From the IMG/VR virus record IMGVR_UViG_2690316347_000014, positions 1 to 4,604 of that record: a stretch of DNA of 4,604 bases, one strand, 5' to 3'. Of this stretch, positions 1,875 through 2,064 are shown piece after piece. The notes beneath the pieces were generated by a model, which saw only the letters and a list, made by a program, of their open reading frames with translations, was not told the DNA's origin and ran no database searches. This stretch comes from a virus. Its lineage: Duplodnaviria > Heunggongvirae > Uroviricota > Caudoviricetes. The translations under genes and the position numbers were made by a program. Position 1 is the first letter of the stretch; each line of letters starts with the position of its first letter.

Positions 1875-2064
1875 CTTTTCGTTTCAGTTCGCGTATTTTT
1901 GTTACTCGCTCGTTTGTAACCGCCCGTTTTTTTTAGAGCTTTTTCCGTTATGACGTTCAAAGTTAGGTAGAGAAAGCCCACCGTCATTTTCGACCAGCCA
2001 TCCAACCTGAATTAACGCATCAGCAAAACCAGACATAAAAGTGATGCGATCTATTGCACTTTTT

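Follow-up and report, generated by a model that had tools for sequence, protein, structure and literature searches.

The gene on the minus strand between positions 2,243 and 1,451 of the window, by which we mean the whole 4,604-nucleotide stretch of DNA analysed here, is very probably a defunct replication initiator of the ydaU family, an ordinary pseudogene and not a programmed frameshift signal. The copy carries two indels, the damage recurs in many assemblies and neighbouring genes are decaying too. The initiator has presumably lost its function, and nothing in the window sequence appears to be built for recoding across the breaks. The initial annotation had offered three explanations for a frame break at a run of eight adenines (A8): a genuine pseudogene, a homopolymer sequencing error, or transcriptional or −1 ribosomal slippage that would make the full-length initiator conditional. 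Our comparisons favour the first with high confidence.

ORF coordinates and Pfam matches revealed a lambdoid immunity and replication module on the minus strand of the window (Table 1). The same module is present in Escherichia coli chromosomes at 97–98% nucleotide identity, and the window and its E. coli relatives share the gene order repressor, cro, ydaT, ydaU, ydaV and DUF977. In E. coli the ATPase of this module is annotated as ydaV, and a single ORF of 262–266 aa lies upstream of it, labelled either ‘hypothetical protein’ or ‘phage replication initiator YdaU family protein’. Three loci (L006, CP044151.1; L007; and L010) match the window from end to end at 99.8% identity, and the window is a Shigella sonnei contig that carries a Rac-like lambdoid prophage remnant with IS600 copies as its bounds. 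An inverted repeat, GTAGAGAAACCTAAGT/ACTTAGGTTTTTCTAC, is found between the cro/repressor intergenic region (2990–3005) and a 23-bp tandem repeat of 1.9 copies 3′ of the repressor gene (3492–3535); from their sequence, the repeats at these two places look like candidate operator clusters for the DicA-like repressor.

Table 1 Features of the window (strand relative to the window; a dot marks palindromes).
Feature	Position	Strand	Basis or match
DUF977 gene	261–683	−	DUF977
ydaV, intact DnaC/IstB-like ATPase (helicase-loader type), directly downstream of the ydaU pseudogene	698–1444	−	IstB_IS21 (1e-19), Bac_DnaA
ydaU-family phage replication initiator pseudogene, in three reading frames	1451–2243	−	Alignment to intact E. 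coli homologues; PHROG 2509
Out-of-frame C-terminal domain, similar to the DnaT C terminus	1451–1720	−	PHROG 6451 ‘primosomal protein’ (E = 1.7e-29)
Sole remaining TCCCCCT copy; junction of the 10-bp deletion and second frame break	1778–1784	−	Alignment A1, columns 476–485
(GAGGAA)n hexanucleotide tandem repeat, poly-Glu linker, variable copy number	1799–1831	−	TRF, 5.5 copies
Palindrome copy 1 of 3, 19-bp GTAACGC-N5-GCGTTAC, in the linker-coding region	1856–1874	.	Perfect match
Remaining N-terminal ORF, 113 aa	1902–2243	−	Ends in KSSKKNGRLQTSE and a stop
A8 homopolymer (T8 on the plus strand), first frame break	1927–1934	−	Alignment to intact copies
Palindrome copy 2 of 3, in the N-terminal-domain coding region	2065–2083	.	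Perfect match
Palindrome copy 3 of 3, 14 bp upstream of the ydaU start codon	2257–2275	.	Perfect match
ydaT-family gene, upstream of ydaU, pseudogene	2321–2742	−	YdaT_toxin
Cro	2726–2953	−	P22_Cro
DicA/CI-type repressor	3030–3437	+	HTH_3

Family matches and gene order support the identity of the broken gene as a putative replication initiator, as first annotated. The profile PHROG 2509 (‘replication initiation protein’) spans residues 1–262 of an intact homologue (profile positions 1–277, E = 1e-89), and the N-terminal and C-terminal pieces in the window match positions 1–102 (E = 1e-58) and 193–277 of the same profile; because both pieces and the intact protein fit one profile, they represent one ancestral gene. 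In the intact protein, a basic and poly-Glu linker connects the N-terminal domain to a C-terminal domain that resembles that of DnaT. Residues 170–262 of an intact homologue (L001, 2552–3340) align with the C-terminal domain of DnaT (PDB 2ru8 and 9zbt), and the terminal motif PDSxIPPGFRG is common to the intact initiator and DnaT. The window gene also holds the position of a YdaU-family member, between the ydaT, cro and repressor genes on one side and the DnaC-like ydaV on the other. The label ‘replication initiator’ is thus supported by family annotation, by the DnaT-like domain and by the position upstream of a DnaC-like loader. Neither Pfam nor NCBIfam assigned a family to the initiator pieces, or to a 264-aa reconstruction joined by hand; all that they yielded was a weak low-complexity match to TFIIA and a match below threshold to the DnaT C terminus. 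A literature search on ydaU/ydaV replication found no paper.

In the window, two lesions that each shift the frame by −1 spread this gene over three reading frames. The 113-aa ORF comprises the whole N-terminal domain followed by eight out-of-frame residues (NGRLQTSE) and a stop. From inside the A8 run, the −1 frame reads KKRAVTNERVTKIRELKRKGNAASVTQTDQKALPEEEEEEEEEE after a stop, and the C-terminal domain follows in the third frame (...PDWLPETLWHEWVRF...PPGFRG, then a stop). YdaU-family proteins are encoded by a single uninterrupted ORF of about 260–285 aa, which the window copy does not have; being split over three frames, it is a pseudogene of the family and not a working member. ORF analysis and comparison with intact homologues therefore bear out the initial placement of the break at the A8 run and of the N-terminal ORF end at 1902. 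The translation of the −1 frame agrees with the claim that it is open from within the run, and the description of this break as the first of two is correct, since the N-terminal, −1 and third frames were all located.

Alignment of the window with three intact E. coli copies (alignment A1) showed that the intact allele has six adenines (A6; TCT AAA AAA CGG) and that the run in the window is two nucleotides longer. A pattern scan of IMG/VR (GGAAAAAGCTCT-A6-N{0,4}-CGGGCGGTTACAAACGAG), together with loci retrieved separately, gave 79 loci including the window. An A6 run is present at 57 of these, almost all with an intact ORF of 260–266 aa; the two A7 loci (L025 and L071) are truncated, as are all 18 loci with A8. 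The remaining two, the S. sonnei-like L047 and L074, have A9 and are still broken, both carrying the 10-bp deletion described below. The earlier proposal that nine adenines would join the two frames is thus sound as arithmetic but does not identify the natural intact allele, which is A6. By itself, an A8 run is unremarkable: dinucleotide-shuffled versions of the window contain 1.32 such runs on average, with at least one in 106 of 200 shuffles. The run is meaningful because it is placed at a frame break that was confirmed against intact homologues.

Across these loci the length of the run has changed repeatedly or, in lower-quality assemblies, has been misread. Some contigs with odd run lengths have many small gaps (8 gap openings in L071 and 9 in L047), and in some such gap-rich contigs A7 or A9 may reflect true slippage or homopolymer read error alike. 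Another frameshifted copy, in E. coli PEC240 (L014), has a run shorter than A8 and is labelled ‘frameshifted’ in RefSeq.

At the second break, 10 bp have been lost, corresponding to one copy of a TCCCCCTAAA direct repeat. Intact relatives have two TCCCCCT copies at this place, and the sequence CTGATC[TCCCCCTAAA]TCCCCCTCGCC has become CTGATCTCCCCCTCGCC in the window. L004 and L005, the nearest relatives that are not of the S. sonnei type (99.3% identity), have A8 and keep both TCCCCCT copies. Because these two loci combine the long run with the complete repeat, the most parsimonious order is that the expansion from A6 to A8 came first and the 10-bp deletion later. Retention of the repeat in L004 and L005, together with an intact ydaT (140 aa) in L004, also indicates that the damage was stepwise. 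In the sequence of events that we propose, A6 would have gained two nucleotides through slipped-strand mispairing during replication, cutting the product off after its N-terminal domain; a later deletion between the TCCCCCT direct repeats would then have moved the C-terminal domain into the third frame.

Decay extends beyond the initiator gene. Alignment A2 revealed a 1-bp deletion in ydaT between positions 2704 and 2705 (GCTGTTAGCCC to GCTGTTGCCC), outside any homopolymer, which leaves ORFs of 58 and 101 aa and is common to the window and L006. The 140-aa ydaT of L004 is matched by an intact copy in L001, and in L005 the gene has a separate frameshift, an independent gain from A6 to A7 in a different run. 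Insertion sequences surround and enter the locus as well. Positions 1–74 and 4531–4604 of the window form a perfect 74-nt inverted repeat with inward-facing arms, which we take to be the right end of the IS3-family element IS600. L006 has complete copies of this IS600-like element on both sides of the segment, and the left copy is missing in L008 and L009. Since the ends of the window are repeated IS ends, it is best explained as a short-read contig that stopped in the insertion sequences, with the segment lying between inverted IS copies. Within the N-terminal domain, at about 2136–2140 in window coordinates (approximately codon 35), an IS600 copy is inserted in six of the seven A8-type IMG/VR loci (L022, L035, L037, L044, L067 and L079), and a 67-aa product matching the interrupted ORF occurs on 73 S. 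sonnei contigs. Decay thus affects the whole prophage segment.

On the far side of the repressor gene, an IS600 left-end fragment (3807–4097), made up of the terminal repeat and the first 77 orfA codons (HTH_Tnp_1), is joined directly to the last 160 codons of a gene for a Rha-family regulator (4095–4530); this fusion is a deletion scar. The DUF1391 gene upstream of it (3640–3795) is intact.

Two kinds of repeat lie within the initiator gene and its upstream region. The palindrome GTAACGC-N5-GCGTTAC has three perfect matches in the window, about 200 bp apart, against 0.01 expected. In some 70 related loci the palindromes keep the same offsets, and they occur almost nowhere else in those loci. 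Judging by this arrangement, they are candidate initiator-binding sites, which could serve as an origin or as auto-operators within the gene, as in lambda O. The GAGGAA repeat of the poly-Glu linker has five units in the window and two to eight in relatives, all in-frame variation; even within S. sonnei assemblies there are four, five, six or eight units, and the repeat behaves as a VNTR-like marker.

The preference for an ordinary pseudogene has to be weighed against four other readings. One, which we regard as unlikely, treats the short A run in the linker as a recurrent mutational hot spot at which excision-defective prophages lose their ydaU-family initiator, with leaky slippage in alleles that carry a single break. 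Selection could favour such a loss, since replication in situ would be lethal. If this were so, A7 in E. coli (PEC240 and L025) and A8 in Shigella would be parallel events. Only where A8 is the sole break, as in L004 and L005, can low-level phenotypic suppression be envisaged. As for phase variation, lengths of six, seven, eight and nine are seen across loci, yet all ten S. sonnei-type assemblies have A8, and the two A9 loci are not switched on because they carry the 10-bp deletion.

A second reading, to which we give very little credence, holds that the 113-aa N-terminal domain has been retained as a working DNA-binding protein that occupies, for example, the GTAACGC-N5-GCGTTAC sites and so obstructs the origin or keeps out related phages. 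Retention of the complete domain (PHROG 2509, positions 1–102), identity of the 113-aa ORF in many assemblies and the intactness of the three conserved palindromes in the window are all compatible with such a role. S. sonnei is, however, clonal and of recent origin, so perfect conservation of an ORF across assemblies is expected and probably accounts for the identity. According to the initial annotation, homologues in which the N-terminal domain is naturally a stand-alone protein would refute the frame break; among the loci examined, only mutated or truncated ones show this form. We rejected a functional stand-alone domain on the strength of the IS600 insertion in a sublineage: an element inside the N-terminal ORF at about codon 35, with its 67-aa product, indicates that the 113-aa fragment is dispensable.

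Programmed recoding at the A8 run, through −1 frameshifting on A_AAA_AAC or RNA-polymerase slippage that makes the full-length initiator conditional, is in our judgement highly improbable. Its attraction lies in the local sequence: the heptamer (TCT AAA AAA AAC) is in the correct zero-frame register for a −1 tandem slip, and the shifted product (...GKSSKKKRAVTNERV..., with the junction-spanning peptide KSSKKKRAVTNER) equals the intact protein plus one Lys. A8 is moreover the only break in L004 and L005. Against this, slippage in E. coli is far weaker on A_AAA_AAC than on A_AAA_AAG, and no Shine–Dalgarno-like stimulator is visible upstream in GGAAAAAGCTCT. Folding of a 91-nt segment that takes in the run and the sequence behind it gave no more stable a structure than shuffled versions did (z = −0.97; 35 of 200 shuffles were as stable), and within 5–10 nt of the run there is only a 5-bp stem, the strong hairpin being the palindrome at 1856–1874, more than 50 nt downstream. 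The two-frame arrangement is also not conserved in homologues, 57 of the 79 loci having A6 and a single ORF, and the neighbouring genes are broken too, with IS600 in the N-terminal domain of a sublineage.

The 10-bp deletion breaks the shifted frame again 140 nt downstream, so that a full-length protein would require two independent −1 events; its amount would be negligible and the residues between the breaks would be wrong. A second heptamer, A_AAA_AAT at about 1755–1761 on the minus strand, does occur in the frame read after the deletion, 27 nt downstream of it, and could be taken as a further point in favour of recoding; it is almost certainly coincidental in an A-rich stretch. A small amount of read-through past the first break, by polymerase or ribosome slippage, may still take place. 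RNA-polymerase slippage is evident at about nine A or T residues in many bacteria, and precedents for slippage at eight exist in some cases (PMC1088944). With that figure, a slippage site should have a run of at least about nine whose length class is kept in homologues; the run here has eight, at the low end of the lengths for which such slippage has been reported, and homologues mostly have six. The slippage put forward in the initial annotation is thus unsupported as a programmed event.

The idea that A8 is a sequencing or assembly error in a genome whose real gene is intact is barely credible, and we discount it: homopolymers are error-prone on several platforms and a few related contigs have A7 or A9, some with many other small gaps, but A8 was found in 10 of 10 independently retrieved assemblies. 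An assembly collection lists the exact 113-aa product in 236 blocks, five of them with contigs of more than 1 Mb, under source names such as ‘bacteriophage protein [Shigella sonnei]’ and ‘SS53G_2911 [Shigella sonnei 53G]’. In the E. coli relatives that we examined the run is A6; consistent with this, the 141 bp around the run had no perfect match to the A8 context in 5,426 complete E. coli genomes, the best match (98.6%) differing by a 2-nt gap. Both the 10-bp deletion and the 1-bp ydaT deletion, the latter outside any homopolymer, are also atypical of read errors.

Taken as an ordinary pseudogene, the locus is a broken member of a known family in an organism known for IS expansion and gene decay, without bearing on programmed recoding. 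It should be annotated as a frameshifted ydaU-family pseudogene and not as a 113-aa ‘bacteriophage protein’, and beyond that it has little import. It does offer an ordered record of stepwise prophage decay in S. sonnei, in which expansion of the A run was most probably followed by the 10-bp and 1-bp deletions and then by IS600 insertions, and lineages could be marked by GAGGAA copy number and by whether IS600 is present.

Several known systems provide points of comparison. Shigella genomes have undergone IS expansion and pseudogene formation in the course of reductive evolution, and the locus is a typical instance, with frameshifts in adjacent prophage genes and IS600 around and inside it. Compared with the YdaU-family initiators of Rac-like lambdoid prophages, it is the same gene in the same order at 97–98% identity, but the window copy is broken by the two-nucleotide homopolymer expansion and the 10-bp deletion. 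The intact initiator shares its C-terminal domain with E. coli DnaT, and the order ydaU–ydaV parallels dnaT–dnaC; its N-terminal domain, by contrast, is unrelated, and in the window the C-terminal domain is out of frame. With the frameshift sites of dnaX and the orfAB genes of IS3-family elements (IS911), the window has in common an A-rich X_XXY_YYZ heptamer in register and a downstream frame at −1. The dnaX and IS911 site is A_AAA_AAG, however, whereas the window heptamer ends in C, has no flanking stimulator, is not conserved and leads into a frame that is broken again. Transcriptional slippage sites such as the T run of Shigella flexneri mxiE, the A9 of Thermus thermophilus dnaX and the A9 or A8 runs of insertion sequences (PMC1088944) likewise place a homopolymer at the junction of overlapping frames, and, as at those sites, one extra A in the mRNA would join the two frames of the window. 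Unlike them, the window has a run of eight and not nine, which derives from the A6 of a gene that needs no recoding, is not conserved and leaves a second break in place.
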